Under the pieces are notes generated by a model, which was not told the origin of the DNA, did no database searches, and saw only the letters and a list, made by a program, of their open reading frames with translations. Below are positions 4,939 through 46,760 of a DNA stretch of 64,000 nucleotides, piece after piece. The first letter of the stretch is position 1. Each line of letters opens with the position of its first letter. The DNA comes from a virus (Duplodnaviria; Heunggongvirae; Uroviricota; Caudoviricetes): positions 1 to 64,000 of IMG/VR virus record IMGVR_UViG_3300021404_000007. One strand, written 5' to 3'. The position numbers were made by a program, and so were the translations under genes.

Positions 4939-5442
4939 ATGGATGATGCGCGCGATTATCAGATGGATCCCAGCCCGCCGGACGAACCGGAATGGATGGA
5001 GATTCCCGAAGTCCTGTTCAGCGAGCTGCTGGCAGCTTGCGATCCGGTTCCGCAGGTCATAACGGCCGAGCGGCGCAAACAGTTGGAGCGGCAGAAGGAT
5101 GCGGTGACCGACGTGAACCGCAGCCTGCTGGTGGCAATGGTCGAGTACTTCGACGGAGCAGACCTGTTCTGCGATCACGCCGTGGGCATCTGCTCATGCG
5201 TGGCGATTGCCGTGCATGAGGAGCTGAAGATGTTCCTCCAAGGGATGCTGACCTGCCGAGCGTGTAGCGGCGAAGGCATCACGTGGGACGAGGACAAGTT
5301 CAAGGTCGAGATCGCCAAGATTGCCGCGGCCGATGGAATCACCGAGGCCCAGGCGCGCGACATGTGCGGCGACGGTCCGGGGTTCGTCCAGTGCGAGACG
5401 TGCGGCGGCAACGGCGTCGTGCGCGTGAAGAAGGAGGGGTAA
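4939..5442 (+). CDS. hypothetical protein with DnaJ-type CxxCxGxG zinc-finger repeats (CRACSGEG, CETCGGNG)
   Basis: 167-aa ORF with an SD. The motif spelling matches the DnaJ central Cys-rich domain. Confidence 0.55.
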   Translation: MDDARDYQMDPSPPDEPEWMEIPEVLFSELLAACDPVPQVITAERRKQLERQKDAVTDVNRSLLVAMVEYFDGADLFCDHAVGICSCVAIAVHEELKMFLQGMLTCRACSGEGITWDEDKFKVEIAKIAAADGITEAQARDMCGDGPGFVQCETCGGNGVVRVKKEG

Positions 5443-5720
5443 TGCAGGCACTCAACCTCGTGGCCGGACTGCTTCTCATTGGCGTTGGGCTCACGGTCGC
5501 GTTCTTCCCGGTGTACTGGCTCGTGGTCAATCGACCCAAACCACCTCCGGCACCGCCACGTCCGATTGAGATCGTGAAGCTGCCGCCAGACTTCTGGTTG
5601 CCGGAAAAGCGCGCGGCACGGATGGAGCGGTACGCCCGCGAGGAGCGTGAGCAGCGGCGGCGTAACCGCGTCTACTCCAACGGTCGCATTGGCGTTCTTT
5701 TCTGGATGTTCCGGCGATGA
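5442..5720 (+). CDS. membrane protein (1 TM, Pro-rich, basic C-terminus)
   Basis: TAATG overlap with the upstream gene. Confidence 0.5.
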   Translation: MQALNLVAGLLLIGVGLTVAFFPVYWLVVNRPKPPPAPPRPIEIVKLPPDFWLPEKRAARMERYAREEREQRRRNRVYSNGRIGVLFWMFRR

Positions 5721-5809
5721 AGGAGTCATGCCACCACGTCTACCGCGTGGAGCGCCGGTGGTACGGACCGGTCTTGGTCTGCGTGCGGTGTGAAAAGGAG
5801 CGGCCATGA
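5717..5809 (+). CDS. tiny Cys/His zinc-ribbon-like peptide (30 aa)
   Basis: ATGA overlap; CHH...CVRC. Confidence 0.25.
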   Translation: MKESCHHVYRVERRWYGPVLVCVRCEKERP

Positions 5810-5906
5810 AGCTTGAGTGAAGCTTCAATTCCACGTTGAAATTAAAATTCAAAATTCAAAATTGAAGCTTTTTTTGTTCACAATTCAAACGCGAAAGGAA
5901 ATAGAG
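5810..5906 (+). promoter_or_regulatory. AT-rich island: hairpin AAGCTTCAATT...AATTGAAGCTT plus T7 (terminator-like) enclosing TTCCACGTTGAA and AATTCAAA direct repeats.
   Basis: Read directly from the sequence. Confidence 0.45.
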
Positions 5907-6179
5907 ATGGCAAAGAACATGCAGCGTATTGAGGACAGCGTTGACGACGAGGGTTACGTCGTGCACGGATACAGCCGGTGGGACTGCGAGAAGTGCGGAC
6001 AGGAAGTCCGGCGCTATCGCGGTTCCTACGACGCGAGCTGTGACTGTGGAGCGCAGTACAACGCGAGCGGTCAGCGTTTGCGCGATGACTGGCGCGAAAA
6101 CCCGAGCTGGGACGACGAGAACATCGGCGACCTCGAAGGCGATGAGATCGCCGCGCTGCGCAGAGCGGGTGAGCTGTGA
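5907..6179 (+). CDS. zinc-ribbon protein (CEKCGQE...CDCG)
   Basis: SD GGAAATAGAG; 90 aa. Confidence 0.55.
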   Translation: MAKNMQRIEDSVDDEGYVVHGYSRWDCEKCGQEVRRYRGSYDASCDCGAQYNASGQRLRDDWRENPSWDDENIGDLEGDEIAALRRAGEL

Positions 6180-6180
6180 C

Positions 6181-6348
6181 ATGCCGATCTTCAAGGAGGG
6201 CCAAATCGTCCAGTTCGGCAACATGCTGTTTCGCGTGGTTGGACCGGAGTGGAAGTCGCGCATGGATGGCAGGTGGGGAGTGATCCTGACCGACGAGCAC
6301 CGATCTTTCCGCGCGCCGGTCGCCAAGGTCAGCGCGGTGCAGAACTAG
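6181..6348 (+). CDS. hypothetical protein (55 aa)
   Basis: Start 2 nt after the upstream stop. Confidence 0.45.
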   Translation: MPIFKEGQIVQFGNMLFRVVGPEWKSRMDGRWGVILTDEHRSFRAPVAKVSAVQN

Positions 6349-6359
6349 CGTGAAGGACC

Positions 6360-7052
6360 ATGCGTGCGATGACGAAGGGACTGCTCGACTACTGGCTCAA
6401 GCCCGGACTTCGGACCGGCGAGGTGCTGTACGACTTATCCTGGCGTGGCTCAGGTCCGATGAACGGACAGCCGAGCAAGCGGCTGGTAGTCGAGCAGATC
6501 TTCGACAGGATCGGGCCGACGCAGATTGTGGAGACGGGCACCAACCGTGGGCTCACCACGGCGTACCTCGCGGGCTTCCCGGTTCGGGTGCACACCATCG
6601 AGCTGGACGAGCGGCTGTACGGCTACTCCACCATGCGGCTGCGTCACCACCACAACGTCACGCTGCACCTGGGCCGAAGCGTGGAGGTGCTGCGCGAGCT
6701 GAAGACGGAACCGCGGGTGCTGTTCTACCTCGACGCGCACGGCGATGCCGGGAACATGTGGGACAGCGTGGAGGTGCCGCTGCACGAGGAGCTGGTGGAG
6801 ATCTTCAGCCGCTGGCCCTCGCCGGTGGTTCTGGTGGACGACTTTCAGGTCCCGGGCGACAGCTACAGCTATCTCGACCGTGGACCGGGTCGGCGGCTCA
6901 CCCCGGAGATTCTCGGGGAGTTCGAGGGTCTGTCGCGCTGGTATCCCTCGGCGCCCGCCTATACGGAGCCGGGGATGAATACCGGCTGGATGGTCATGGG
7001 AAGCGACCACTCTGCGGTCCTGGACGGGATACACGGGCTGCGACGCGGGTAA
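6360..7052 (+). CDS. class I SAM-dependent methyltransferase (O-methyltransferase-like; motif I VETGTNRG, post-II FYLDAHGD)
   Basis: 230-aa ORF; the motif spacing resembles the caffeoyl-CoA O-MT / Methyltransf_24 family. Confidence 0.6.
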   Translation: MRAMTKGLLDYWLKPGLRTGEVLYDLSWRGSGPMNGQPSKRLVVEQIFDRIGPTQIVETGTNRGLTTAYLAGFPVRVHTIELDERLYGYSTMRLRHHHNVTLHLGRSVEVLRELKTEPRVLFYLDAHGDAGNMWDSVEVPLHEELVEIFSRWPSPVVLVDDFQVPGDSYSYLDRGPGRRLTPEILGEFEGLSRWYPSAPAYTEPGMNTGWMVMGSDHSAVLDGIHGLRRG

Positions 7053-13784: not shown

Positions 13785-14185
13785 GCCCCGGCTACACCGC
13801 GGTGGTCATCCACCTGCCGAATAACGACGGCGTGGTGGAGATAGAGCGGATCACGGTCCCGGACGGTGATTTCGCCGGCCTGGGCTTCCTGCAGAAGATG
13901 GTCGGCGGCTACATCGAGCATGTGGCCAGCGCCGACGGCAGCCTCGACTTCTATTTGAATGAAGAAGGCAAGCTGCCGCCGAACAACCTGCCCATCAACA
14001 ACGTCGCCACTGATCTGCTGTGGGTCGTCAATCCGGCGTTTCGGGGCGTGGACGTCCTGGTGGGCAACGTCGTGCTCACGGGCCATGAAGGGCCGGAGAC
14101 GGCCAGCATCCCGGACGGGTGGTGGGAGCTACTGCAGCAGCAGAAGTGGCAGGTACCAGTGAAGTTCATCGAGGAGGGTAAATGA
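13781..14185 (+). CDS. hypothetical protein
   Basis: ATGA overlap; 134 aa. Confidence 0.5.
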   Translation: MSPGYTAVVIHLPNNDGVVEIERITVPDGDFAGLGFLQKMVGGYIEHVASADGSLDFYLNEEGKLPPNNLPINNVATDLLWVVNPAFRGVDVLVGNVVLTGHEGPETASIPDGWWELLQQQKWQVPVKFIEEGK

Positions 14186-19003: not shown

Positions 19004-19362
19004 GCGAGACAGTCCCGCACGACGGCCTGATGATGACGGAAACCAGCACCGACGACGAGGTGCGGGTCATCAGGATCATCGGTCTGATCAACGGCGGCAA
19101 GACGGCGTTCGACGGGCAGTACCTGGTGCAGTACGACCCCGGCCGCGGCGGTGTGGAGCCGGTGACCGGCAGGCCGATGCTGTGCCACATGGTCACCCAC
19201 CCGGACGTGGAGCAGGCCACCAAGTACTCCGTCACGGACGCGGTCAAGGTGTGGCAGGCGGTGGACCCGCGCCACCCGGTGCGAGCGGACGGCAAGCCCA
19301 ACCGCCCGCTGACCGCCTTCAGTGTGGAGATCATGCCGCCGGACGCGGAGCCGTTCCTGTGA
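18991..19362 (+). CDS. hypothetical protein
   Basis: SD GAGGAGAGG. Confidence 0.5.
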   Translation: MEMVGETVPHDGLMMTETSTDDEVRVIRIIGLINGGKTAFDGQYLVQYDPGRGGVEPVTGRPMLCHMVTHPDVEQATKYSVTDAVKVWQAVDPRHPVRADGKPNRPLTAFSVEIMPPDAEPFL

Positions 19363-20117
19363 TCGTGCTGCTGCACAGCGGTGGACTTGACTCGCATGTG
19401 TGTTTCTTGATGCACCCAGACTGGAAGCCGGTGTACGTGGCACACGGCAGCGAGAACGAGGAGGCCGAGCTCAAGGCGCTGACCGACCTGCAGGAGCTGG
19501 ACCCGCGCTTCCGGGTGGTGGTGCTCCGGGCGGTGACTGGCGCCGCCAGGCACGACGGCCACATCGCCCACCGGAACCTGCTGCTGCTGACCACCGCGCT
19601 GGCCGTGTTTCCCATGGCGGAAGCCGTGGCCTTTGGTGCCCTGCTGGGTGAGGGATCGGGCGACAAGAGCCGGGCCTTCTGCCGTGCCACCGAGCGGGTG
19701 TGGCGGCTGAGCGAGGGCCGCAATGTCAAACTGTTGCGCCCGCTACGGCACATGACCAAGGCGCGTGCGCTGCGGCACGGTATGGCACTGCCGGGTGGAC
19801 GTGGGCTGGCTGTAACGACAAGCTGCTACCACGGCACGCACTGTGGGCGGTGTCAAGCCTGCTTCCGGCTGGGCATTGCCCGCTACCTGTGCGGGCTGGA
19901 CGCGGTGCCGCCGAAGCTACCGGCCGAGACGCTGGGGATACAGGCCACGCTGGAAGCGACCCCGGTGCGGCGCTGGCCCGCGCTGGCGCTGGCGAACGTG
20001 GACGTGCTGCGGGCGTACGCCCTCGCACGGCTGCGGCGGAACCTGGCCAAGCCGTACATCGGCGCCGGGCCACAGAGCTTAGGTCGGCATGGTGCCGACC
20101 GGGAGAGGGAGAAATGA
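19359..20117 (+). CDS. queC: 7-cyano-7-deazaguanine synthase QueC
   Basis: N-terminal PP-loop LLHSGGLDS; C-terminal Zn site SCYHGTHCGRCQACFRLGIA; 252 aa. Confidence 0.75.
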   Translation: MIVLLHSGGLDSHVCFLMHPDWKPVYVAHGSENEEAELKALTDLQELDPRFRVVVLRAVTGAARHDGHIAHRNLLLLTTALAVFPMAEAVAFGALLGEGSGDKSRAFCRATERVWRLSEGRNVKLLRPLRHMTKARALRHGMALPGGRGLAVTTSCYHGTHCGRCQACFRLGIARYLCGLDAVPPKLPAETLGIQATLEATPVRRWPALALANVDVLRAYALARLRRNLAKPYIGAGPQSLGRHGADREREK

Positions 20118-20406: not shown

Positions 20407-21021
20407 ATGACGAATCCGGAGCTGATCCGTGCCGCACGGGCCAGCTTGTCCCAGCATTTCGACCGGCCTCCACTGGACATGGGCGTGGAGGCCGGGATCG
20501 TGTGGGCCATCGTGGCGTCGCCCGGCACCGGGGTCAACGGGTACGCGCTCGTCCCGGCCGAGGGCCACCCGTGGTCCACCGGGTTTCCGGGCGACGAGGA
20601 CATGTATGTCGACCGGGATCGATCACGTAAGAACCTACGGCTGTTCTGGGAGATCCAGAAGCGCAAGGGTGGCGGCACCGCGCCCGAGGACATGGGCAAG
20701 GTGTTCGAGGAGATGGCGCAGACCGAGGGCTACGAGAAGATGCCCAGCGACAACCTGGACGACTACCTCGTCGTGCACGGCGGCGTGACGTACTACCACC
20801 ACCCGTGGGTCGGGTTCGACACCGGGCACGCCTGGGATATCTGGGGACCGGAGTACGACCCGCACGGCATCAGCGCCCGGTTCGCGTCGGTGGACCACAA
20901 GTGGGACGTGCACTGGACACCGGAGCTGGTGGCCGAGGAAGCCAAGCGGCTGGCCCGGCAGCTGGCCGAGATTGGGGTGTTGGAGAAGAACTTGGAGATC
21001 GAGGAGGAAAAGGATCGGTGA
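20407..21021 (+). CDS. hypothetical protein (204 aa)
   Basis: ATG 6 nt after the upstream stop. Confidence 0.5.
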   Translation: MTNPELIRAARASLSQHFDRPPLDMGVEAGIVWAIVASPGTGVNGYALVPAEGHPWSTGFPGDEDMYVDRDRSRKNLRLFWEIQKRKGGGTAPEDMGKVFEEMAQTEGYEKMPSDNLDDYLVVHGGVTYYHHPWVGFDTGHAWDIWGPEYDPHGISARFASVDHKWDVHWTPELVAEEAKRLARQLAEIGVLEKNLEIEEEKDR

Positions 21022-21335
21022 AGGTGTGTCGCTACCCGCTAGACGTGCTGGGGCATCAGGTGCTCAAGCTGCCGCTGTCCACCCAGCCGCTGTCGGTCTC
21101 GCTGGCCTGGCGGAAGGAAGGGCTGATCGACCTGTGGGCGCTGGTGCCGGAGGTGGCACCGCTGGTGTCCTACGACTTTTACGTGGTGCCCAGCGACGAC
21201 ACCATGCCAGCCGAGCTGAGTAGGCATGGGATGCACGCGGTGGGTGAGATGTTCATCGGCACCGTCGTCACGCCGGGCCACCTGGTCCAGGGCGAAACCG
21301 ACGTGTGGCACGTATTCCTGGGGCCACCCCAGTGA
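21018..21335 (+). CDS. hypothetical protein
   Basis: GTGA overlap. Confidence 0.45.
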   Translation: MKVCRYPLDVLGHQVLKLPLSTQPLSVSLAWRKEGLIDLWALVPEVAPLVSYDFYVVPSDDTMPAELSRHGMHAVGEMFIGTVVTPGHLVQGETDVWHVFLGPPQ

Positions 21336-21374
21336 TAGAGACCTGCGGCAGGGAGCCGCCGGGGAAGGGAAGAG

Positions 21375-21710
21375 ATGAAGAAGTCAGAAATCATCAGGCA
21401 GGCGGCGGGCCGCGTGCGGCATGTGGCCGGTGGCCAGCGTGTCTGCTACTGCACACCGAGCCGGGAGATGGTGCTCAGCATCCAGGACGTCGCCATGAAC
21501 AACCTGCCGGTCGCCGAGCGGGCCGTGATCCCCAGCCTGATGGGGATGGTGGCGCAGAAGCTGCGCGAGGTGACCGGCCGCACCGGCAAGGGGGAGTCGC
21601 TGCGCGAGTTCGACACCGAGGACACCGACGCGGCTTACGCGCTGACCGACCGCGTTGTGGAGGAGGCGTTTGAGAAGGCAGCCGTGATGTACGAGGAGCA
21701 CGGAGACTAG
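21375..21710 (+). CDS. hypothetical protein
   Basis: SD GGGAAGGGAAGAG. Confidence 0.5.
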   Translation: MKKSEIIRQAAGRVRHVAGGQRVCYCTPSREMVLSIQDVAMNNLPVAERAVIPSLMGMVAQKLREVTGRTGKGESLREFDTEDTDAAYALTDRVVEEAFEKAAVMYEEHGD

Positions 21711-21718
21711 TGACGGCG

Positions 21719-21762
21719 CGGGCGCCGGTCCGGCTGACTGGGACCGGCGCCCGCGTCGCCCA
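21719..21762 (+). terminator. GC-rich hairpin GCGGGCGCCGGTCC...GGACCGGCGCCCGC
   Basis: 14-bp perfect inverted repeat after the stop. Confidence 0.45.
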
Positions 21763-21860
21763 ACCATAGACCTTGGCAAGAGAAGGACAACTGGTCCACT
21801 CAATGCCGGAGGAAAAGACCTGGGGCACAACGCCGCAGGCGATGAAGAAGAAAGGGCATC

Positions 21861-22670
21861 ATGCCTGAATCACCAACACAAGTCATCCGACGGGTCGGCA
21901 CCGAGAGGCTGCTCATCCCGATCATCGGCACAGCGCCGCTGATCATGCACCGTTGGAGCGAGAAGGCGCGGCGAGAGCTGCTCGAATCGCAACAGGGCAA
22001 GAAGAAGATCAAGACGCCGCTGGACCCGCAGGCCGAGTACGAGGCGTCCAGCTACCGCATCGAGGGTGTTGAGGTACCGATCCTAGGCCGGGACCCCCGG
22101 ACGCCGGTCGAAACCCACAGCACGGAATCGCAGGCGCGACGGAACGCGGAGGACGCTGAGCGTGGGCGTGACCCGCAGATGGCACCCATCGAGACCGTCG
22201 AGGGGCCCGTCTACGGGTTCCCCGCCCTGGCGTTCAAGAGCGCCACGGTGGAGACGTTCCGGTTCTTCGACAAGTCCGTGACCAAGGTCATGCTGCAGCA
22301 GTCCCTGTATTTCAAGGGCGTCTTCTCCAAGTCCGAACCGATGAGCCTGGTGCGCATCTACGGCGAGCCGCAGATGCGAGAGGACATCGTCACGGTGGGT
22401 ATGGGCACCCAGCCCCGCTACCGTGCGGAGTTCGAGGAGTGGCGAGCCGTGCTGGACGTGCGGTACGTGACGGCCACGCTGGACCCTGGCACCGTGCTCA
22501 ACCTGATTGAATCCGGCGGCATGTTCGTCGGGGTGGGCGAGTGGCGCCCGGAGAAGTCAGGGGAGTCCGGCACGTATGAGATCGACGACACCCGTGAGGT
22601 GGTGGCCGTGCAAGAGGGCGGCGACGAGACACCACTTGAGCCCACAACGGCAGCGAAGGCACGCCGGTGA
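21861..22670 (+). CDS. hypothetical protein (269 aa)
   Basis: Long ORF after a terminator; function not recognised. Confidence 0.55.
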   Translation: MPESPTQVIRRVGTERLLIPIIGTAPLIMHRWSEKARRELLESQQGKKKIKTPLDPQAEYEASSYRIEGVEVPILGRDPRTPVETHSTESQARRNAEDAERGRDPQMAPIETVEGPVYGFPALAFKSATVETFRFFDKSVTKVMLQQSLYFKGVFSKSEPMSLVRIYGEPQMREDIVTVGMGTQPRYRAEFEEWRAVLDVRYVTATLDPGTVLNLIESGGMFVGVGEWRPEKSGESGTYEIDDTREVVAVQEGGDETPLEPTTAAKARR

Positions 22671-23155
22671 GCGAGCCGCACGACGAACTGGAAACAGTCG
22701 GGCTGCCCAGCGTAGCCATCGCCGTGTTCGAGGACGCGGCGGATCGTGGTGTCCTCGATGGCGAACTGCTGCACGACGAGTTCGCGCAGGAGGATCATCC
22801 GCTGCACAACTACCTGGAGTGGGATGACGCCAAGGCCGCACGGGCTCACCGTGTCGACCAGATCAACGGCATGGTGCGCAAGGTCAAGTACCAGTGGTGG
22901 GTGGACGACCGGCCCAAGCGGGTGCGGCGCTTCATCTCGCAGAAGTACACCGGGAACATCGAGCGGCTCAACGGCTACACGCGCATCGAGGACGTGGTGC
23001 GTAACCCGCTGCAGACGAAGATCATGCTGCGGGAGCTGAAGAAGAAACTTCGGGAGCTGCAGGATCGCTACGGCGACTTGGAGGAGTTCACGGAGATGAT
23101 TCAGGGGCTGCTGCCCAACGGTGACGACGACGACGGGCAGGAGGCAACCGGGTAA
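22667..23155 (+). CDS. hypothetical protein
   Basis: GTGA overlap. Confidence 0.5.
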   Translation: MSEPHDELETVGLPSVAIAVFEDAADRGVLDGELLHDEFAQEDHPLHNYLEWDDAKAARAHRVDQINGMVRKVKYQWWVDDRPKRVRRFISQKYTGNIERLNGYTRIEDVVRNPLQTKIMLRELKKKLRELQDRYGDLEEFTEMIQGLLPNGDDDDGQEATG

Positions 23156-23162
23156 AGACCCT

Positions 23163-23203
23163 CGCGTGGCCCGTTCACCCTCGGGGCGGGCCACGCGAGC
23201 CTC
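23163..23203 (+). terminator. 13-bp stem hairpin CTCGCGTGGCCCG...CGGGCCACGCGAG
   Basis: Directly after the stop of 22667..23155; precedes the repeat expanse. Confidence 0.5.
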
Positions 23204-25760
23204 GGCTTGGCGGGCTTCGTCTCGGCGGGGCATGGCAGGGCTCGGGCGGCTCGGCTTGGCAGGCTGGGATGGCCCGTCCCGGCAGGTCCTGGCTTGGCGC
23301 GTCAGGCGTGGCAAGGAGGGCGGTACCGGCTGGGCGGTTCGTGGCTCGGCAGGCAGGTCCAGGCATGAATCGGCTCGGTGGGCCCGGCTCGGCAGGCAGG
23401 GCTTGGATGGCTGCGGTTGGAGGGCTTGGCGTGGCAGGCATGGCCAGTCCGGGGTGGGCTTTGCAGGGATGGCTCGGCGAGGTTGGCATGGCAGGCATGT
23501 CGTGGATGGCTTGGACAGCGCGGCCGGGCTCGGGTGGCAGGCCAGTCTTGGCGAGGACGGCGCGGCGCGTCCGGTCCCGGCAGGCTCGGCAGGGTGGGAT
23601 GGCCAGGAATGGTAGGCGTGGCACGGCAGGCTTGGCTAGCGATGGCGTGGCTCGAATGGCGAGGCCGGCTGGGCTAGGTCGGCTCGGCGGGGTCTGCTCG
23701 GCATGGCTGCCAGGGCTCGGCCCGGTCTGCTCGGCTTGGCTGGGCAGGCGGGTCTGGGCGAGGCAGGGTCCGCTTGGCGAGGCAGGTAGGGCTAGGCAGG
23801 TCTGGGCGAGGAGGGCTCGGCTTGGCGAGGCAGGCGCGGGAGGCATGGCGAGGTCGGCTGGGATGGCGGCGCTTGGAGGGCATGGCAGGCGTGGCAAGGA
23901 GTGGCTCGGCTTGGCTCGGTGGGCGTGGCAGGCATGGTTGGCGGGGCGCGACGTGGACGGCATTGGCGGGGCAGCGCCCGGCAGGCGAGGAGTGGCGCGT
24001 CTTGGCCCGGATGGCCGGGCAGCCTTGGCCCGTCCCGTCCCGGCGTGACGGCGCAAGGCCAGGCATGGCTCGGCACGGCAGGCGAGGTAGGCGAGGGCGG
24101 CTTGGGTGGCACGGCGCGGCGTGACCAGGCAGGCATGTCCCGGGTGGCATGGCGGTGGTCCGCACGGCTCGGCAGGCGTGGCGCGTCTTGGTTGGCTTGG
24201 AAGGCACGCTGGGCACGGCAGGGCAGGCTCGGCATGGTTGGCGCTGCAGGGATGGCGGGGCTTGTCCTGGGCAGGCGGGGCAAGGATGGGTGGTTGGCGC
24301 GGCACGGCGTGGCTCGGCACGGCAGGCTAGGCACGGCTTGTCCCGGGCGGCGGGGCGAGGACGGCTCGGCTCGGCAGGCTAGTCGAGGGCGGTTGGCGCG
24401 GTTGGCTCGGCAGGCACGGCATGTCTTGGGCGGCTGGGCTTGCTTGGCACGGCTTGGCATGGCAGGCGTGGCGAGAGGTGGCGCGGAGGGCTGGTCGCGG
24501 AGGGCGCGGCAGGCGAGGCTAGGCGGGGAAGGCGCGGGCGGCGGGGTCGGCGCGGCAGGCACGGTTGGCGAGGCTGGGATGGATGGCTTCGCACGGCAAG
24601 GCAGGCGAGGCTTGATGTGGCTAGGCCCACATGGCGCGGCTCGGCAGGCGCGGGAGGCATGGCGCGGGCGGCATGGCTTGGACCGGCACGGCGTTGGCAG
24701 GCACGGTCGGCGCGGCGGGGCGGGGATGGATGGCGCGTCCTGGTGGGGCCTGTCAGGCGCGGTGGGCTTGGCAGGGATGTCCGGTCTTGGAGCGCAGGCT
24801 CGGTAGGCGTGGAAGGCAAGGTCGGCGCGGCCGGGCAGGCTAGGCAGAGCGCGGATGGCTGGGCGTGGCGGGCCTCGGCTCGGCAGGCTGGGCAGGGATG
24901 GCAGAGCTGGTCCCGGCATCGGTCGGCTGGGCGCGGCGCGGCGTGGCAAGGCAGGCATGGAGTGGCACGTTTGGCGAGGCCGGGATGGCAGGCAAGGTAG
25001 GCCCGGTCCGCTTGGCTTGGCTGGGCAGGCGAAGCGCGGCTAGTCCGGTCAGGGCTTGGCATGGGAGGCCCGGCAGGTGAGGCGGGGCGTTGCTAGGACG
25101 GCAGTGCCAGGCTTGCCAGGCAAGGCGTGGATGGAGTGGACGGTTGGCGAGGCGCGGCAGGCAAGGTCCGTCCGGGCTGGGCTAGCTTTGCGGGTCGCGG
25201 CTAGTCCGGGCAGGCGGGGCTAGGCAGGGACGGGCTCGGAGGGCTCGGTCGGCGCGGCAGGGCGGGGCGGGGCGGGGCAGGCGCGGCTCGGCATGGTCGG
25301 CTTCGGATGGCTCGGCTTGGCAGGCATGGTCGGCTGGGATGGCTAGCGTTGGCGTGTCGCGGTCGGGCTCGGCGGTCTTGGCTAGGCCCGGATGGTTCGG
25401 GCGGGCATGTCCCGGCAGGCGACGCGAGGCAAGGTAGGCGTGGAAGGCATGGCGAGGCCGGGCAGGCAGGGCTTTGCTTGGTTGGCTTGGTTGGCGATGC
25501 CCGGCATGGCAGGCATGGCTTCGCTCGGCGAGGCAGGAACCGGCTAGGCGTGGCTGGGCTCGGCAGGCTCGGCCGGTCACAGCAACGGCAGGGCATGGCC
25601 AGGCGGGGCAGGCACGGCAGGGCAATGCTTGGATGGCGCGGCCGGGCTTGGCTGGGCGGGGCAGGCAGGTCAAGGCTAGGGCGGCATGGCTCGGCCCGGT
25701 TGGCAGGCGGGGCTCGGCGGTTCGGGGTCGGCTCGGCAGGGCAGGGCACGGCAGGCGCGA
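23204..25760. repeat. G-rich degenerate short-period repeat expanse, block 1 (GGCNNGGC words; period about 4-5 / about 9 nt).
   Basis: Dominant words are GGCAGGCATGGC, GGCTCGGC and GGCTTGGC. The + strand is about 49% G versus about 23% C. Open reading frames appear in all six frames (an artefact). Confidence 0.7.
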
Positions 25761-25774
25761 AAGGAACGAGCGTG

Positions 25775-26014
25775 ATGGAACACGATCTGAACGGGCGGCG
25801 CACGCCACAAGTGCTCACTGACGAGCACAAAGACGGGTCGCTGTGGATCAATCACCGCGACGAAATCTGGGCTTGGGTGCACGACGATTGGCGGATGCTC
25901 CGCAACAGCGGACTGTGGTCGGGAATCGGCCTCTATAGCGGCGAGTCGCAGATGCGCGCTGCTGGTCCGTTCACCGAAGTTGACTTCGCCAAGCTGTCGG
26001 GCGGGCTGGGCTAA
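25775..26014 (+). CDS. hypothetical protein (79 aa) embedded between the repeat blocks
   Basis: SD GAAAGGAACGAG followed by ATG. Normal composition; Trp-rich. Confidence 0.55.
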   Translation: MEHDLNGRRTPQVLTDEHKDGSLWINHRDEIWAWVHDDWRMLRNSGLWSGIGLYSGESQMRAAGPFTEVDFAKLSGGLG

Positions 26015-26470
26015 GCACGGTTGGCTTGGCAGGCAGGGCTTGGTAGGCAGGGCATTGGCAGGGCTTGGTAGGCGTGGCTCGGCAGCGGCTGGCAGGCAAG
26101 GCCCGGTGTTGGCCAGGCGTGACTGGTCTTGGCTCGGCAGGCAAGGCTCGGTCGGCTTGGGCTGGAAGGCCCGGCATGGCCGGGTAGGTCCCGGCAGGCA
26201 TGGCTCGGACGGCTAGGTCGGCTCGGCGTGGCCTGGCGCGGCAGGCATGGACAGGGAGTTGGGGCATGGCTGGTCGAGGCAAGTCCTGGCCTGGCCCGGC
26301 AGGCGGGGCAGCGGCTTGGCCCGAATTGGCATGGATGGCAGGGACGGCGCGGCACGGCAGGCGAGGCGTGATGTGGCCCGACGTGGCCTGGTTAGGCGAG
26401 GCGGGGTGAGGCCCGGCAGGCCCGGCTGGGCAAGGGGTGGCTAGGAAGGCCTGGCTCGGCTTGGCAGGCA
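26015..26470. repeat. G-rich repeat expanse, block 2
   Basis: Same GGC-periodic words as block 1. Confidence 0.65.
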
Positions 26471-26504
26471 TGGCAAGAAACAAGAAACAAGAAAGGAAGT
26501 ACAG

Positions 26505-26864
26505 GTGAGAGGCGAACTAACGATCAACGTGCGGAGGACTGAGCTGCTGGAAGCCCTGAAAGAGAACCGTGATCTGCACGGTGCCGCCTTCGAGAAGGCG
26601 AAGGCCGGCTACGTCAGGGTCGAGCGGCGGCACCTACTGGAGGCACTGGACCGGCTGGACCGGGGCGAGATGATCAACCGCATCCTCGGCAACGTGCCGC
26701 CGGAAAACCACACGTCGGACTACGACGACGCCATCGACATGATGATGTGGTCCACCGACGACATCGTGGAGCTGACGCAGCAGCAGTTCAAGCAGTACGT
26801 CAAGGACGACTGGGGCTGGAAGAACCAGTGGGTCACGTCCAACAGCATGTACCTGGAGGCGTAG
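26505..26864 (+). CDS. hypothetical protein
   Basis: SD AGGAAG followed by GTG. Confidence 0.5.
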   Translation: MRGELTINVRRTELLEALKENRDLHGAAFEKAKAGYVRVERRHLLEALDRLDRGEMINRILGNVPPENHTSDYDDAIDMMMWSTDDIVELTQQQFKQYVKDDWGWKNQWVTSNSMYLEA

Positions 26865-26872
26865 CAGCAGCG

Positions 26873-27529
26873 ATGGACCGGCCGTGCTCCCGGTGCGGGA
26901 AGGTGGAGCAACTGCGCCGGGGGCTCTGTCACGCCGACTATGAACGTGACCGCCGTGCTGGCCGCATCGAATCGCTGGTGTCGGCACAGCAGACCCGCAA
27001 CCACCTCGTGTGGTTGCGGGTCAACGGCTGGCGCTACCGGGAGATAGCGCGGGCCGCGGGCATCAACCGCTCCCAGCTGGCCAGGGTGTTCGCCGGGCGC
27101 CAGCTGATCAATGTCAAGACGGCCAACCGCATCTGCGCCATCGACCCGACCACCCGCTCCGAGTACATCAGGTTGGCCTGGGACACCCGGCGGGAGAACG
27201 CGGCCAGGCGTGCCTGGGACCACAGCTATGAGGGCTTACGGGCGTCGTTCGAGCAGCGCCATCCCGTCGTCGTTCCGGTACCCAAGCCGGGAGAGTGGAC
27301 GCGCGCCGCGCTGTGCGCGCAGGTGGACAACGAGATGTTCTTTCCGGAGAAGGGGGGCGCCACCCGGCACGCCAAGCGGATATGTCTCGGCTGCGAGGTG
27401 CGTGAGAAGTGCCTGGAGTTCGCCCTCGACAACGAGATCCGGCACGGCGTGTTCGGTGGCTTTTCGGATCGGGAACGGCTGCGGCTCGCCGCAGCGCGTC
27501 GCGGCCGGGGCAAGGACGGCGGCGCATGA
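26873..27529 (+). CDS. WhiB-like (Wbl) Fe-S regulator fused to an N-terminal Cys-cluster / HTH extension
   Basis: The C-terminus CAQVDNEMFFPEKGG...CLGCEVREKCLEFAL...GVFGG matches the Wbl signature. The N-terminus carries CSRCG...CHADYE and an HTH-like WRYREIARAAGINRSQLARV. Confidence 0.65.
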   Translation: MDRPCSRCGKVEQLRRGLCHADYERDRRAGRIESLVSAQQTRNHLVWLRVNGWRYREIARAAGINRSQLARVFAGRQLINVKTANRICAIDPTTRSEYIRLAWDTRRENAARRAWDHSYEGLRASFEQRHPVVVPVPKPGEWTRAALCAQVDNEMFFPEKGGATRHAKRICLGCEVREKCLEFALDNEIRHGVFGGFSDRERLRLAAARRGRGKDGGA

Positions 27530-27536
27530 TGGGGAG

Positions 27537-27722
27537 ATGTCCAAGATACGTCCCGACGCCCCGGTGTCCATTGGCTGTGCGATCTGCCTCAACACCCGGG
27601 GAACGCGCACGCCAGCGACCACGGTGGTGCATGGATACGCTGTTTGTGACCAGCATGTGGAGCTGGCCGAGCAACCTGGGTTCTCCACGTCGCTCATGGA
27701 ACGCCGGCTTAACCCGCTGTGA
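27537..27722 (+). CDS. zinc-ribbon protein (61 aa)
   Basis: CAIC...C; frame of ORF 27111..27722. Confidence 0.45.
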   Translation: MSKIRPDAPVSIGCAICLNTRGTRTPATTVVHGYAVCDQHVELAEQPGFSTSLMERRLNPL

Positions 27723-28105
27723 CCACCGACGTCTTCGACGACACCCCGGAGGGTGCGCCGCCGTTCCCGCGCACGCAGGCCAGCCTGCAGTCCGAGGCGA
27801 TGCGCAAGCTGCTCACCAGCAACGAGTACCGGGCGCTGCGCAAGCAGTTCCGCTTCGACGAGGAGCACCGCTGGGTGGGCAAGCGCCAGGGCGCTCCGTG
27901 CTGGCTGTGCGGCGGGGACATCGACTACCGGCTGTCCTACCCGCACCCGTACTCGTGGAGCCTGGACCACGCGCTGACCGTGAAGGAGCGGCCGGACCTG
28001 GCGCTCGACCGCAACAACTTCCGCAGCAGTCACCTGGACTGCAACCGGCAGCGCGGCACCGACGACCCGAAGCTGGACATCGGCAACCCCAGCGAGATTT
28101 GGTAG
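27719..28105 (+). CDS. HNH endonuclease
   Basis: CWLCGG...H..H...LDH...N...H.DCN motif order; GTGA overlap. Confidence 0.65.
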   Translation: MTTDVFDDTPEGAPPFPRTQASLQSEAMRKLLTSNEYRALRKQFRFDEEHRWVGKRQGAPCWLCGGDIDYRLSYPHPYSWSLDHALTVKERPDLALDRNNFRSSHLDCNRQRGTDDPKLDIGNPSEIW

Positions 28106-28159
28106 TGGAGTGCGCTGGCGTATATGCCCTGGTGGCCTGCCCAAGCAACCACACCACCC

Positions 28160-28215
28160 CACCCCCGCACTCCACGCAGCGGCCAAATAAGCGGCTGTTT
28201 TTACTGCGCTTTTGC
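28160..28215. terminator. conserved element CCGCACTCCACGCAGCGGCCAAATAAGCGGCTGTTTTT between convergent gene blocks
   Basis: A near-identical element lies at 43174-43213; the T-run follows it. Confidence 0.45.
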
Positions 28216-28482
28216 GGTGGCCGCTAGCCCATGGCGGGCTACGAGATCCCCACCGACATCACCAGCGCCCGGTATGCCGGAGCCCTGGTAGCTAACCGAG
28301 TTGGGCGCCTCGTCGCGGTTGAGGGCCAGGGACATGGTGATCCCGAGCCCGATGTGCGAGCGGCTGGTGTGCCAGTTGATCAGCGAGCCGCCCCAGCCGA
28401 TGGCCCGCAGCCGACCCAGCTCCTCGTACAGCTGGTCGACCGTAACTTCCTTGACCGTGAACTCCATGTGTAGTGGGTCCAT
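28201..28482 (-). CDS. hypothetical protein
   Basis: TAATG overlap with the upstream gene. Confidence 0.45.
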   Translation of the reverse strand: MDPLHMEFTVKEVTVDQLYEELGRLRAIGWGGSLINWHTSRSHIGLGITMSLALNRDEAPNSVSYQGSGIPGAGDVGGDLVARHGLAATAKAQ

Positions 28483-28670
28483 TACTCCGGCTTCCTCCAT
28501 ACTTCGTCGAAGGCGACCCGCAGGCAGTCCGGGCACACCCACCTCACTTTCACGCGCTCCATGCTGCCCAGCGCATCCCCCACCTCGATCTCCCCGGTGG
28601 GGGTTAGGGCGATGTGATCCCGCCAGTGTGTGCAGCTGGGATCGGCGCCGCTGAACGGCGTCTCACTCAT
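28482..28670 (-). CDS. zinc-ribbon protein (CPDC)
   Basis: ATGA overlap with the SPFH gene. Confidence 0.45.
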   Translation of the reverse strand: MSETPFSGADPSCTHWRDHIALTPTGEIEVGDALGSMERVKVRWVCPDCLRVAFDEVWRKPE

Positions 28671-45056: not shown

Positions 45057-45511
45057 GTGCCCGCACCCGTCAGCACGACGTGCGGCAGCGGCCCGGAGTC
45101 GGATATCGACGGGAACCAGGTGGCCGTGTTGTCCGGCCCCTCCCGCAGCTCGACCGAGAGCAGCGGCGCCTTGGGCAGCGCGCGTCGGCTGTGCTTGGCG
45201 ATCTCGGCGGCGATGGCCTCGGTGGTGGGCTGCCCGATCAGCGCGTAGTACTTCAGCTTCCCGGCGCGCAGGTAGCCGATGAACTCGTCCTCGCGGTCGA
45301 TGATGAACCCGTGGTCGAACAGCGTGGCGATCATCGCGCGCAGCTTCTCTTTGACGGCGCCGAACTCCAGCGGGTCGCCGACATCCTGGGCGTAGGTCCA
45401 GGTGACGTGGAAGGTATGGCCGTGGATATTACGACATTTGGCGCCCGGCCCGGTGAGCCCGAGGATGCGATGCCCGGCGGCGAAGTGGGTACGTACCGAA
45501 ATGGTGCTCAT
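45053..45511 (-). CDS. queD: 6-carboxy-5,6,7,8-tetrahydropterin synthase QueD
   Basis: FAAGHRI...GKCRNIHGH motif; ATGA overlaps on both sides. Confidence 0.7.
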   Translation of the reverse strand: MSTISVRTHFAAGHRILGLTGPGAKCRNIHGHTFHVTWTYAQDVGDPLEFGAVKEKLRAMIATLFDHGFIIDREDEFIGYLRAGKLKYYALIGQPTTEAIAAEIAKHSRRALPKAPLLSVELREGPDNTATWFPSISDSGPLPHVVLTGAGT

Positions 45512-46413
45512 GAGTACACCTGCTCTCCCCGTGCCAGCTTGGCCACGGTCTCGATGTGCTGCGGATGGCCGTCCACCAGGTACAGGATCGGGCCGGTGAA
45601 ATCCTCTGCCCAGCCGCCGAGGCGACCCCACTTGGGCGACGGCACCGGGTTGTGCCGGTGGAAGTAGCGCAGCTGCTGCTCCTGCACGCTGGCCGAGAGC
45701 GCCGATAGCCGCACCATCATCAGCCGGTTGTGCGGTGCGCTGGTGGAGACTTCGCTCGGGTTCACCCCGTAGTGATCGCGCAGCAGGCACGCGATGTCCT
45801 GGCTGTAGGTGCCGCGCCCGTTCAGGTCGATGCTGTGCACCTTGCCCTGCCGCTGCGGGTCGCGCAGGTGCAGCCGCCCGTAGCGGTAGCTGGACCCCCA
45901 GCCGGAGGAGTCCACACTGAAGAACGGCAGCCGCAGGTGGCTCTTGTTGGCCAGCCCCCAGCCGTGGAACCGGACGTGCGGGTGGTTGTCCCGCGCGTAC
46001 TTGAAGCAGGCCACCATCCACCGGAACTTCTCCTGGATGCCCGCGTCGACCAGCGCCATGCCGCCCAGCCCGATGAAGTCCACGCCGCGCTCGACGTAGT
46101 AGTCCATGGTTTCCGGCCGCTCGCGCAGGTGGATGGTGGGTACACCGGGGATACCGGCGTCCACCATCTCGTTCCAGTTGTACTTGCTCGTCTCGGCGTT
46201 GCCGGTGATGTCGAGGCTGGCGATCCACGAGATGCGGTGGTGGTACATCTGCGCCCACGTCACCAGGTTCCTCGTCTCCACCGGCTTGCCCAGCGTGCGC
46301 AGGCTGACGGCGCCGGAGTCGGCGGCGATCCGGCACGGGGCCAGCCTGTCCAGGTCGTACTTGTGGTAGTACGCGAAGGACACCAGCAGGTTGCGCGGCG
46401 GTGCGATGGTCAC
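45508..46413 (-). CDS. dpdA: DpdA-like 7-deazaguanine DNA transglycosylase (TGT family)
   Basis: TGT-like fold, IAADSGAV and VDFIGLGGMA; position in the preQ0 operon; GTGA overlap. Confidence 0.55.
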   Translation of the reverse strand: MTIAPPRNLLVSFAYYHKYDLDRLAPCRIAADSGAVSLRTLGKPVETRNLVTWAQMYHHRISWIASLDITGNAETSKYNWNEMVDAGIPGVPTIHLRERPETMDYYVERGVDFIGLGGMALVDAGIQEKFRWMVACFKYARDNHPHVRFHGWGLANKSHLRLPFFSVDSSGWGSSYRYGRLHLRDPQRQGKVHSIDLNGRGTYSQDIACLLRDHYGVNPSEVSTSAPHNRLMMVRLSALSASVQEQQLRYFHRHNPVPSPKWGRLGGWAEDFTGPILYLVDGHPQHIETVAKLARGEQVYS

Positions 46414-46760
46414 GGTATCGCCCAGCTGATGTCGTCCGGCAGGTGCAGGTCGTCGGGCAGGTCCACGTCCTTGCGCCCGCTGATCACCACCGTGCCGTAG
46501 AAGTGCACCCAGCCGTTCACCGGCTCCGTGCGCCCGCTGGGGTTCAGTTCGTGCCACAGCTTGGTCGCGGTGTCGTTGCGCGGCGGCATTGCGCCACTCC
46601 AGATGTGGGTGTACCAGAACAGCACGTTGCCCACCTCGGTGCTGGCGCTGTCCAGGTCGGCGCCGATGATGCCCTGTAGCCGCTGCACGAAGCCGGTCAG
46701 GTCGAAGGGCTGCACCTCCAACGGACCGAGAATGGGGTGGATCACCAGCGCCAGCATCAT
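46410..46760 (-). CDS. hypothetical protein (116 aa) in the deazaguanine operon
   Basis: ATGA overlap with the GT gene. Confidence 0.5.
   Translation of the reverse strand: MMLALVIHPILGPLEVQPFDLTGFVQRLQGIIGADLDSASTEVGNVLFWYTHIWSGAMPPRNDTATKLWHELNPSGRTEPVNGWVHFYGTVVISGRKDVDLPDDLHLPDDISWAIP

Follow-up and report, generated by a model that had tools for sequence, protein, structure and literature searches.

In the genome of a tailed phage (Caudoviricetes; IMG/VR record IMGVR_UViG_3300021404_000007) we analysed a stretch of 64,000 nucleotides, referred to here as the window, which contains about 3.3 kb of G-rich repetitive sequence in the midst of phage genes. We consider it very probable that this expanse is the array of guide RNAs (vrRNAs) of a phage-encoded Viral Interference Programmable Repeat (VIPR) system. 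Our reading is based on the recurrent association of the array with two genes, the identity of one of these as vipr, the anatomy of the repeats, in which GGY triplets (Y being a pyrimidine) alternate with two variable bases (NN), the junctions between units, the agreement of one unit with the published targeting code, and the absence of both a self-target and a stable RNA fold.

VIPR is an already known system of CRISPR-like RNA-guided gene silencing. Its protein, Vipr, is a minimal RAMP (RRM core, glycine-rich loop and thumb) that polymerises on vrRNAs of 9-16 YNNGG repeats, one protomer per repeat; GGY is held by the protein, the NN pair with DNA in an NNx reading, whose skipped base is usually the wobble position of a codon, and transcription is silenced (bioRxiv 10.64898/2026.04.26.720920, 10.64898/2026.04.26.720927). 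Satellites, prophages and other VIPRs are the natural targets known so far, and the system has appeared either as a weapon in conflicts among phages, satellites and prophages or as a means by which hosts counter viruses; cyclic oligonucleotide-based antiphage signalling system (CBASS) genes and host defence genes are nowhere mentioned in either preprint as targets of VIPRs carried by phages (bioRxiv 10.64898/2026.04.26.720920, 10.64898/2026.04.26.720927). The first preprint distinguishes seven types and several array architectures, including a 'staggered' one with 1-nt overlaps, describes guides closed off by a tail, by a ribozyme or by a staggered junction, and sorts the accessory (vap) genes into six classes with predicted DNA-binding or enzymatic products, some of them predicted to have a winged-helix/helix-turn-helix (HTH) fold (bioRxiv 10.64898/2026.04.26.720920). 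Compared with the systems described in these 2026 preprints, the array in the window is extreme in its size, in its units that lack Y, and in an accessory protein with no detectable similarity to SUSP vap1.

Composition and repeat structure of the array

The expanse comprises two blocks on the + strand. Block A (23204-25759, 2556 nt) has ~50 units bounded by GGC-A-GGC junctions, and block B (26016-26476), which resembles it in composition and unit structure, has ~9. G and C account for 48.6% and 25.2% of block A and for 46.6% and 25.2% of block B, compared with 35.5% and 30.5% of the whole window, and a GC skew of 0.27-0.31 is restricted to 23-26 kb of the window. Both blocks are built of GGC or GGT triplets at a spacing of 5 nt or, less often, 4 nt. 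The pattern GGCNNGGC reaches 34-61 occurrences per kb within the expanse versus 0-5 per kb elsewhere in the window, exclusively on the + strand, and all 16 matches to GGYNNGGYNNGGYNNGGYNNGGY fall within the expanse, where shuffled sequences led us to expect 0.05. The preliminary description of this DNA, made from its letters, had reported a G-rich, strand-skewed GGC expanse, and the composition of the blocks and the confinement of the motif to one strand of the expanse bear this out.

In block A we counted 361 GGC triplets, with autocorrelation peaks at lags of 5, 9/10, 14, 19 and 24 nt. Successive GGC triplets are 5 nt apart in 194 cases and 4 nt apart in 60, and the gaps of 9, 10, 14 and 15 nt are sums of such steps where one triplet has degenerated. 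Counting all GGY triplets (n = 427) gives 192 steps of 5 nt and 88 of 4 nt. The period of ~9 nt proposed earlier is therefore imprecise, since the basic period is 5 nt interrupted by 4-nt steps and lags of 9, 10 and 14 nt are their sums. A higher-order period of ~48 nt, unnoticed in the earlier description, is also present.

The NN dinucleotides between triplets spaced by 5 nt are close to random (entropy 3.7-3.8 of a possible 4 bits; 3.7 in block A). When the array was aligned with that of a closely related phage (variant L002), substitutions affected 1.0% of GG positions, 1.4% of Y positions and 4.6% of other positions; among population variants the rate of change is thus 3-4 times lower at GGY positions than at the variable NN positions. 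The predicted fold of the array RNA is no better than that of shuffled sequences (z = +0.18 for block A and -0.36 for block B), as would be expected of a single strand coated with protein. A search with Rfam at gathering thresholds, the hammerhead ribozyme included, found no family anywhere in the window.

Long open reading frames (ORFs) occupy both strands and all six frames of the expanse, which might be taken to indicate that it encodes a repeat protein. We regard this, along with the alternative that the expanse is an artefact of assembly, as exceedingly improbable. The frames owe their length to the scarcity of A and T in the expanse, and none of them has the genome's pattern of G+C at third codon positions (GC3). 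A PGRS- or collagen-like protein would be expected to occupy one frame with genome-like codon usage and to have a period divisible by 3, whereas the 5/4-nt period found here cannot hold a frame. Nor did Tandem Repeats Finder reveal the repeat-spacer structure of a CRISPR array, in which near-identical direct repeats of ~23-50 nt are separated by unique spacers; it returned short, poor local arrays only (periods of 5-53 nt, 58-92% matches), so that the expanse is no clean minisatellite. These results agree with the preliminary description, in which the six-frame ORFs and their atypical codon usage had been remarked upon and the expanse had been called non-coding and distinct from canonical CRISPR, PGRS-like and collagen-like sequences. 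As regards assembly, the window is 99.9% identical to a metagenome contig of 100,945 bp (L001), and five other samples yielded assemblies of near-identical phages in which the array recurs at ~97% identity. Since five independent assemblies contain the same array, the artefact that had been named as a possible refutation is ruled out.

The vipr gene and the module to which it belongs

Upstream of the array, on the same strand, lies a gene (21861..22670, +) for a Cas7-like RAMP protein of 269 aa, which was recognised by profile searches, hhalign and AlphaFold2/Foldseek. A family profile built from 43 members matched a single solved structure, PDB 36pp_D ('SUSP1 Vipr protein'; E = 9.3e-9), and alignment with SUSP2 Vipr by hhalign gave a probability of 96% (E = 1.4e-9), the similarity being confined to the C-terminal half. 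The AlphaFold2 model (pLDDT 84) found its best Foldseek matches in the PDB among Csm3/Cas7 subunits (E = 4e-5). Across the 43-sequence family alignment the G-loop GVGEWRP and R188 are invariant. The residues with which SUSP1 Vipr grips GGY, namely R138, D177, W178 and R179, align to R188, E227, W228 and R229 of the window protein, all of them invariant in the family (with D replaced by E); for H17 of SUSP1 no alignment to the window protein was obtained. From this homology we identify the gene product as a Vipr protein, which would coat the guide RNAs. Candidates that we had considered for the expanse, namely a TRAP-like RNA-binding array, a pac/cos site, iterons, Chi-like sites and a Rho-related G-/C-rich strand bias, were dropped upon this identification.

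The stop codon of vipr is overlapped by the start of a second gene (22667..23155, +; 162 aa), and the array, which is intergenic and on the + strand like both genes, begins 49 nt past the stop codon of the latter. We treat this second gene as a vap by its position and co-occurrence only. Its product belongs to no Pfam family, and a profile of the accessory family searched against PDB and Pfam gave noise only. The structural model has a weak winged-helix resemblance, which fits the winged-helix/HTH proteins predicted among vap products in the first preprint. Relatives were elusive: a related-locus search of IMG/VR gave none and a word-index protein search two close ones, and the family was recovered by local phmmer/jackhmmer searches of loci obtained through the DNA pattern described next.

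We scanned IMG/VR with the bare DNA pattern GGCNNGGCNNGGCNNGGCNGGCNNGGC and obtained at least 120 loci, many of them with clusters of matches, on contigs of 43-73% GC. Among the loci listed, 84 encode a homologue of the vipr family (phmmer) and 86 a homologue of the accessory protein (jackhmmer), and wherever loci were read directly both genes adjoin the array and share its G-rich strand. Two of these loci (L077 and L068) show the same synteny as the window, with a gene ending in ...GxGEGRPDS...GWGTF followed by one with the signature PLHxxFEWDD..AA..YR..QAR.LIR, and G-rich arrays between and after both genes on the coding strand. The layout recurs in the cultured Gordonia phages UmaThurman and Ecliptus, whose arrays are ~300 nt long. 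Array and genes occur together in at least 84 of the listed, unrelated viral contigs, which would not be expected of a one-off expansion; this, and the poor arrays seen by Tandem Repeats Finder, speak against the earlier suggestion of a recently expanded minisatellite. Whether the expanse represents an insertion or an expansion had been proposed for study by BLASTN against related phages. Megablast of positions 21000-28500 found no match among 50,697 phage records, and none of the cultured phages is closely similar in its DNA, so the synteny reported here is drawn from protein and pattern searches.

The two cultured phages also offer some observations of their own. In UmaThurman (L127, NC_031249) the CDS annotated as 'gp40 hypothetical protein' (5620-5943) consists of a GGC/GGT pentamer array between a Vipr homologue (gp39) and an accessory homologue (gp41); judging from its sequence, gp40 most likely represents a vrRNA array annotated in error. 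The UmaThurman cassette directly follows the repressor and excise genes. In Ecliptus (L128, OP820472) two HTH genes and then the vipr-array-vap cassette (5143-6456) are situated in the tail block, with the tail assembly chaperone gene on one side and the tape measure gene on the other, a position which suggests that the module is mobile.

The extreme G skew of the non-template strand and its dense GG runs could alternatively point to an element that acts as DNA, either a tract prone to G-quadruplexes or R-loops or a site for packaging, replication origin or partition, and both possibilities had been raised in the preliminary description. We judge such an element to be very unlikely. A GGY triplet followed by two free bases is the published RNA ligand of the very protein encoded next to the array, and the array travels with vipr and vap rather than with terminase, replication or partition genes, the Ecliptus cassette lying within the tail block. 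Furthermore, one unit decodes to a foreign gene (see below), which would be unexpected of structural DNA. The suggestion of a G-quadruplex or R-loop array consequently gives way to evidence for an RNA product. That of a protein-binding array came closest among the candidates put forward, except that the evidence points to guide RNAs coated by a RAMP protein and not to a DNA site.

Guide units, junctions and register

The word GGC-A-GGC makes up half of the 4-nt steps of the array (59 copies, median spacing 48 nt). It is likewise the dominant 4-nt step of the other arrays (n = 833), where its spacing peaks at 35-65 nt and the medians of individual arrays, 39, 44, 49, 54 and 59 nt, correspond to 7-11 pentamers. 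We take these words to mark the limits of guides, in the manner of a staggered array, and on this view the 2.6 + 0.46 kb of the window's array would hold about 60 guide-sized units. This array is the longest of 238 G-rich tracts that we obtained by a density scan of the retrieved loci, the next longest having 1.8 kb.

The additional 4-nt steps are words of the form GG[A/T]NGGC, including GGATGGC (n = 17), GGTTGGC (n = 13) and GGTCGGC (n = 12), which per kb are 20-40 times commoner in the window's array than in the others. They are not random indels but amount to units that retain GG and NN without the pyrimidine. A flexible parse as (Y)NNGG yields 8-11 NN per unit.

A guide unit complementary to CBASS cyclase genes

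One complete in-register unit (26356..26417, +) contains 11 NN and, decoded with a 1-nt skip, gives GAnGTnGTnCCnGTnCTnTAnGAnGGnGAnCC. We found exact matches to this pattern at 88 loci, with agreement at 11 of 11 NN; 59 of them are in JGI metagenome contigs and 29 in GTDB genomes (22 of the latter in Actinomycetota), and there was no match in IMG/VR. By our estimate, ~0.1 match to 22 specified bases would be expected by chance. All 88 matches are in frame and encode the peptide DVVPVLY[ED]G[ED]P in one protein family, and they represent 58 distinct sequences in which every skipped position varies; a 32-nt example is GATGTCGTGCCGGTGCTCTACGAAGGCGACCC. The protein is the oligonucleotide cyclase of CBASS (PADLOC PDLC00808, E = 5e-115; Pfam SMODS), and the genes that neighbour it, for HORMA, TRIP13, a SAVED-nuclease effector and a CapH/CapP-like regulator, complete a type III CBASS operon. 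The limits of the match coincide exactly with GGC-A-GGC junctions, which supports our reading of these words as boundaries. As judged by its sequence, the unit is complementary to CBASS cyclase genes, and it would presumably silence them.

No self-target was apparent, as the 64-kb window (of a contig of ~101 kb) contains no site with up to 3 mismatches and its flanks of the array contain no match to a decoded unit at 80% or more of NN. The other units of the window were compared with the 88 CBASS loci as strict windows, as sub-runs split at gaps and by the flexible parse at 80% or more of NN, and none matched.

A second long unit in strict 5-nt register (25508-25564, +; 10 NN), with the pattern ATnTTnTCnGAnAGnCCnTAnGTnTGnTC, had 0 matches in IMG/VR. 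Four flexibly decoded units were scanned there as well. The unit at 24270 had one perfect in-frame match (10/10 NN) on the peptide VDTVANTIFP, within a 336-aa ORF (L218 8989-9999, +) that has weak similarity to thymidylate synthase and lies on a viral contig of 62% GC; this match is suggestive but could be due to chance, given that 0.05-0.1 such matches were expected. The unit at 26193 gave 7 matches in one family of phages of 34% GC, which we judged to be at chance level, as were the 2 matches of the unit at 24508, and the unit at 25607 had 0.

Guides of other arrays were also compared with CBASS loci. Among 842 guide windows there were 11 matches, where 4.7 were expected. In one array (L124, - strand, unit at offset 1627) a guide agrees at 9 of 9 consecutive NN, in frame, with the sequence for the peptide FDAAHELGH (L207 2671, L192 1997). 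This peptide contains the HExxH motif of a regulator gene of the M78/ImmA-like (CapP-like) kind that adjoins CBASS operons.

Functional state and proposed role of the array

If the published mechanism applies, the + strand of the array would be transcribed with or after the vipr-vap operon, and the periodicity of the junctions suggests that the transcript would be cut or delimited at GGC-A-GGC into ~60 units of ~48 nt. Vipr protomers would then bind one per (Y)NNGG, sequestering GGY and exposing NN, as published for SUSP1 and as the homology and conserved contact residues lead us to expect here. The exposed NN would read double-stranded DNA as NNxNNx, skipping the wobble base, and the bound filament would block transcription. 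At least one unit (26356-26417) appears to be aimed at a conserved catalytic-strand motif in the type III CBASS cyclase genes of Actinomycetota, so that the phage probably turns off an immune operon of its host with part of the array. Most other units would be either decayed or read through an as yet undescribed tolerance for 4-nt 'NNGG' units.

We tentatively extend this to the whole array, and think it plausible, if short of probable, that its ~60 guides provide an actinophage of ~100 kb with an RNA-guided anti-defence library directed against conserved, wobble-proof peptide motifs of host immune genes, which would silence the operon during infection and would make use also of pyrimidine-less 4-nt 'NNGG' units, a form undescribed for VIPR.

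Several of our results weigh against the interpretation of the expanse as a VIPR array. Of 48 units measured from junction to junction, only 4 stay in a strict 5-nt register, as compared with 499 of 554 (90%) in the other arrays, and because most units are out of strict register the canonical code can be applied to two long units only, one of which has a target. The array showed no counterpart of the conserved 3' tail or pseudoknot in which SUSP1 vrRNAs end, and the accessory protein has no detectable relation to SUSP vap1, the one vap with which we compared it. No CBASS-bearing host is known for the phage. Finally, in the close variants L002 and L003 substitutions together with a 1-nt insertion break up the unit that matches CBASS, so that close strains differ in their guide repertoire.

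Much of the array may be decayed or be read by an undescribed rule. It is conceivable, although we incline to doubt it, that the array is a VIPR array by descent but now largely a relic, in which breaks of register by 1 nt have inactivated most units while a small number, 26356-26417 among them, remain functional; its size would then result from slippage or duplication under relaxed selection and would not indicate a large library of working guides. The loss of register and the broken CBASS unit would be natural consequences of such decay, as would the 121 gap columns that separate the variants within 2.9 kb and the duplication of a 157-nt block in L002, and six decoded units scanned in IMG/VR had no convincing target there. 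Decay does not readily account for the non-random character of the extra 4-nt steps, with their marked excess of GG[A/T]NGGC words over other arrays, for the 8-11 NN that the flexible parse still recovers from each unit, or for the stronger constraint on GGY than on NN and the preserved junction spacing of 48 nt.

Should silencing by the guide prove true, phages would possess an RNA-programmable off-switch for bacterial immune operons, which would amount to a counter-defence of a new class and to an example, from nature, of "wobble-proof" guide design. The only detectable target of the guide is a host CBASS cyclase, and it is hit at its most conserved peptide, so that one guide covers the cyclases of many genera. 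The array is, moreover, roughly ten times as long as characterised examples and adds to VIPR a repeat grammar in which 4-nt units lacking the pyrimidine are frequent. There is also a consequence for annotation, in that such arrays are entered in databases as hypothetical proteins, as in the case of UmaThurman gp40.

Comparison with known systems

Among VIPR systems the window most resembles type II, known from Escherichia phage SUSP1 and a Pseudomonas fulva prophage. They have in common a phage-encoded small RAMP protein with an accessory gene and RNAs of GGY/NN pentamers encoded intergenically on the same strand, a 1-nt skip with the skipped base at the wobble position, and conserved residues for contact with GGY. 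However, SUSP-type vrRNAs are discrete units of ~100 nt, made mostly of GGT and furnished with a conserved 3' tail/pseudoknot, whereas the window has ~3 kb of continuous, tail-less GGC units; the accessory proteins are unrelated in sequence and the Vipr proteins are similar in their C-terminal halves only. The published targets are satellites, prophages and other VIPRs, in contrast to the host CBASS cyclase that is the one target identified for the window. The staggered arrays (fig. S18 of the first preprint) resemble ours in that guides abut without tails, which fits the GGC-A-GGC step every 8-11 units here and in the arrays that we surveyed and suggests that the two architectures are equivalent. 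The window differs from staggered arrays in its many additional 4-nt 'NNGG' steps, which are rare in other arrays.

With the backbones of Class 1 CRISPR-Cas complexes (Cas7/Csm3) the system shares the RAMP fold, one protomer per short interval of RNA, periodic flipping of bases and a target specified by a guide. Unlike these, the window has no identical repeats alternating with spacers, and the guide information is non-contiguous, amounting to 2 of every 5 nt. No other cas genes were noticed among the annotated flanking genes, although no search was aimed at them.

Vibrio phage ICP1, studied by Seed et al., reportedly carries a canonical type I-F CRISPR-Cas system that targets the host PLE island, cleaves its DNA and acquires spacers. 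The likeness lies in a phage-borne, RNA-guided system that is aimed at an anti-phage element of the host; the difference is that silencing in our case would be nuclease-free, through a VIPR filament, and directed at a conserved protein motif of a CBASS gene. The anti-CBASS proteins Acb1 and Acb2 degrade or sequester the cyclic nucleotide signal. The presumed outcome, neutralised CBASS, is the same for the window's guide, which would act further upstream, on transcription of the cyclase operon.

Features and genes flanking the array

Between the accessory gene and the array there is a stable hairpin (23163..23203, +; -37.7 kcal/mol, z = -3.1). A hairpin with a 13-bp stem had been described here previously, and its existence is confirmed, but its designation as a terminator is unproven, as a U-tract is lacking and a terminator scan did not report it; it may serve as a terminator, an attenuator or a processing signal.

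The two array blocks are separated by a small gene of 79 aa (25775..26014, +) preceded by the ribosome-binding site AAAGGA. It has three clear homologues (79, 72 and 64% identical), in keeping with its previous characterisation as an ordinary gene that splits the expanse, and differs from its counterpart in variant L002 at 1 of 240 positions, compared with ~3% in its flanks. We found no match to it in Pfam or PHROG. Its residues 23-55 match the repeats of two long proteins (10 and 5 matched stretches).

Directly 3' of the last array unit is a perfect (CAAGAAA)x3 tandem repeat (26474-26494), followed by the ribosome-binding site and GTG start of a gene at 26505. Next comes an ORF (26747-27529, +) that combines an HTH with a WhiB domain at the C-terminus (Pfam Whib, E = 6e-21); read at full length it overlaps the gene at 26505-26864, so translation probably starts further downstream. 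Other phage genes in the neighbourhood encode a Ku-like protein, RecE/RecT, an endolysin, a minor tail protein, a WhiB-like regulator and an HNH endonuclease. No tRNA or tmRNA genes were found in the window.

Comparison of the window with contig L001 showed 19 differences within 200 nt (13924-14119) of one gene of the DUF3846 family, 16 of them at third codon positions, which looks like a small patch of recombination between strains. The window also encodes a QueC-like protein (phrog_1550; 19359-20117, +) and a queuine tRNA-ribosyltransferase/DpdA-like protein (phrog_7068, E = 1e-116; 45508-46557, -), a combination that suggests 7-deazaguanine modification of the phage DNA.

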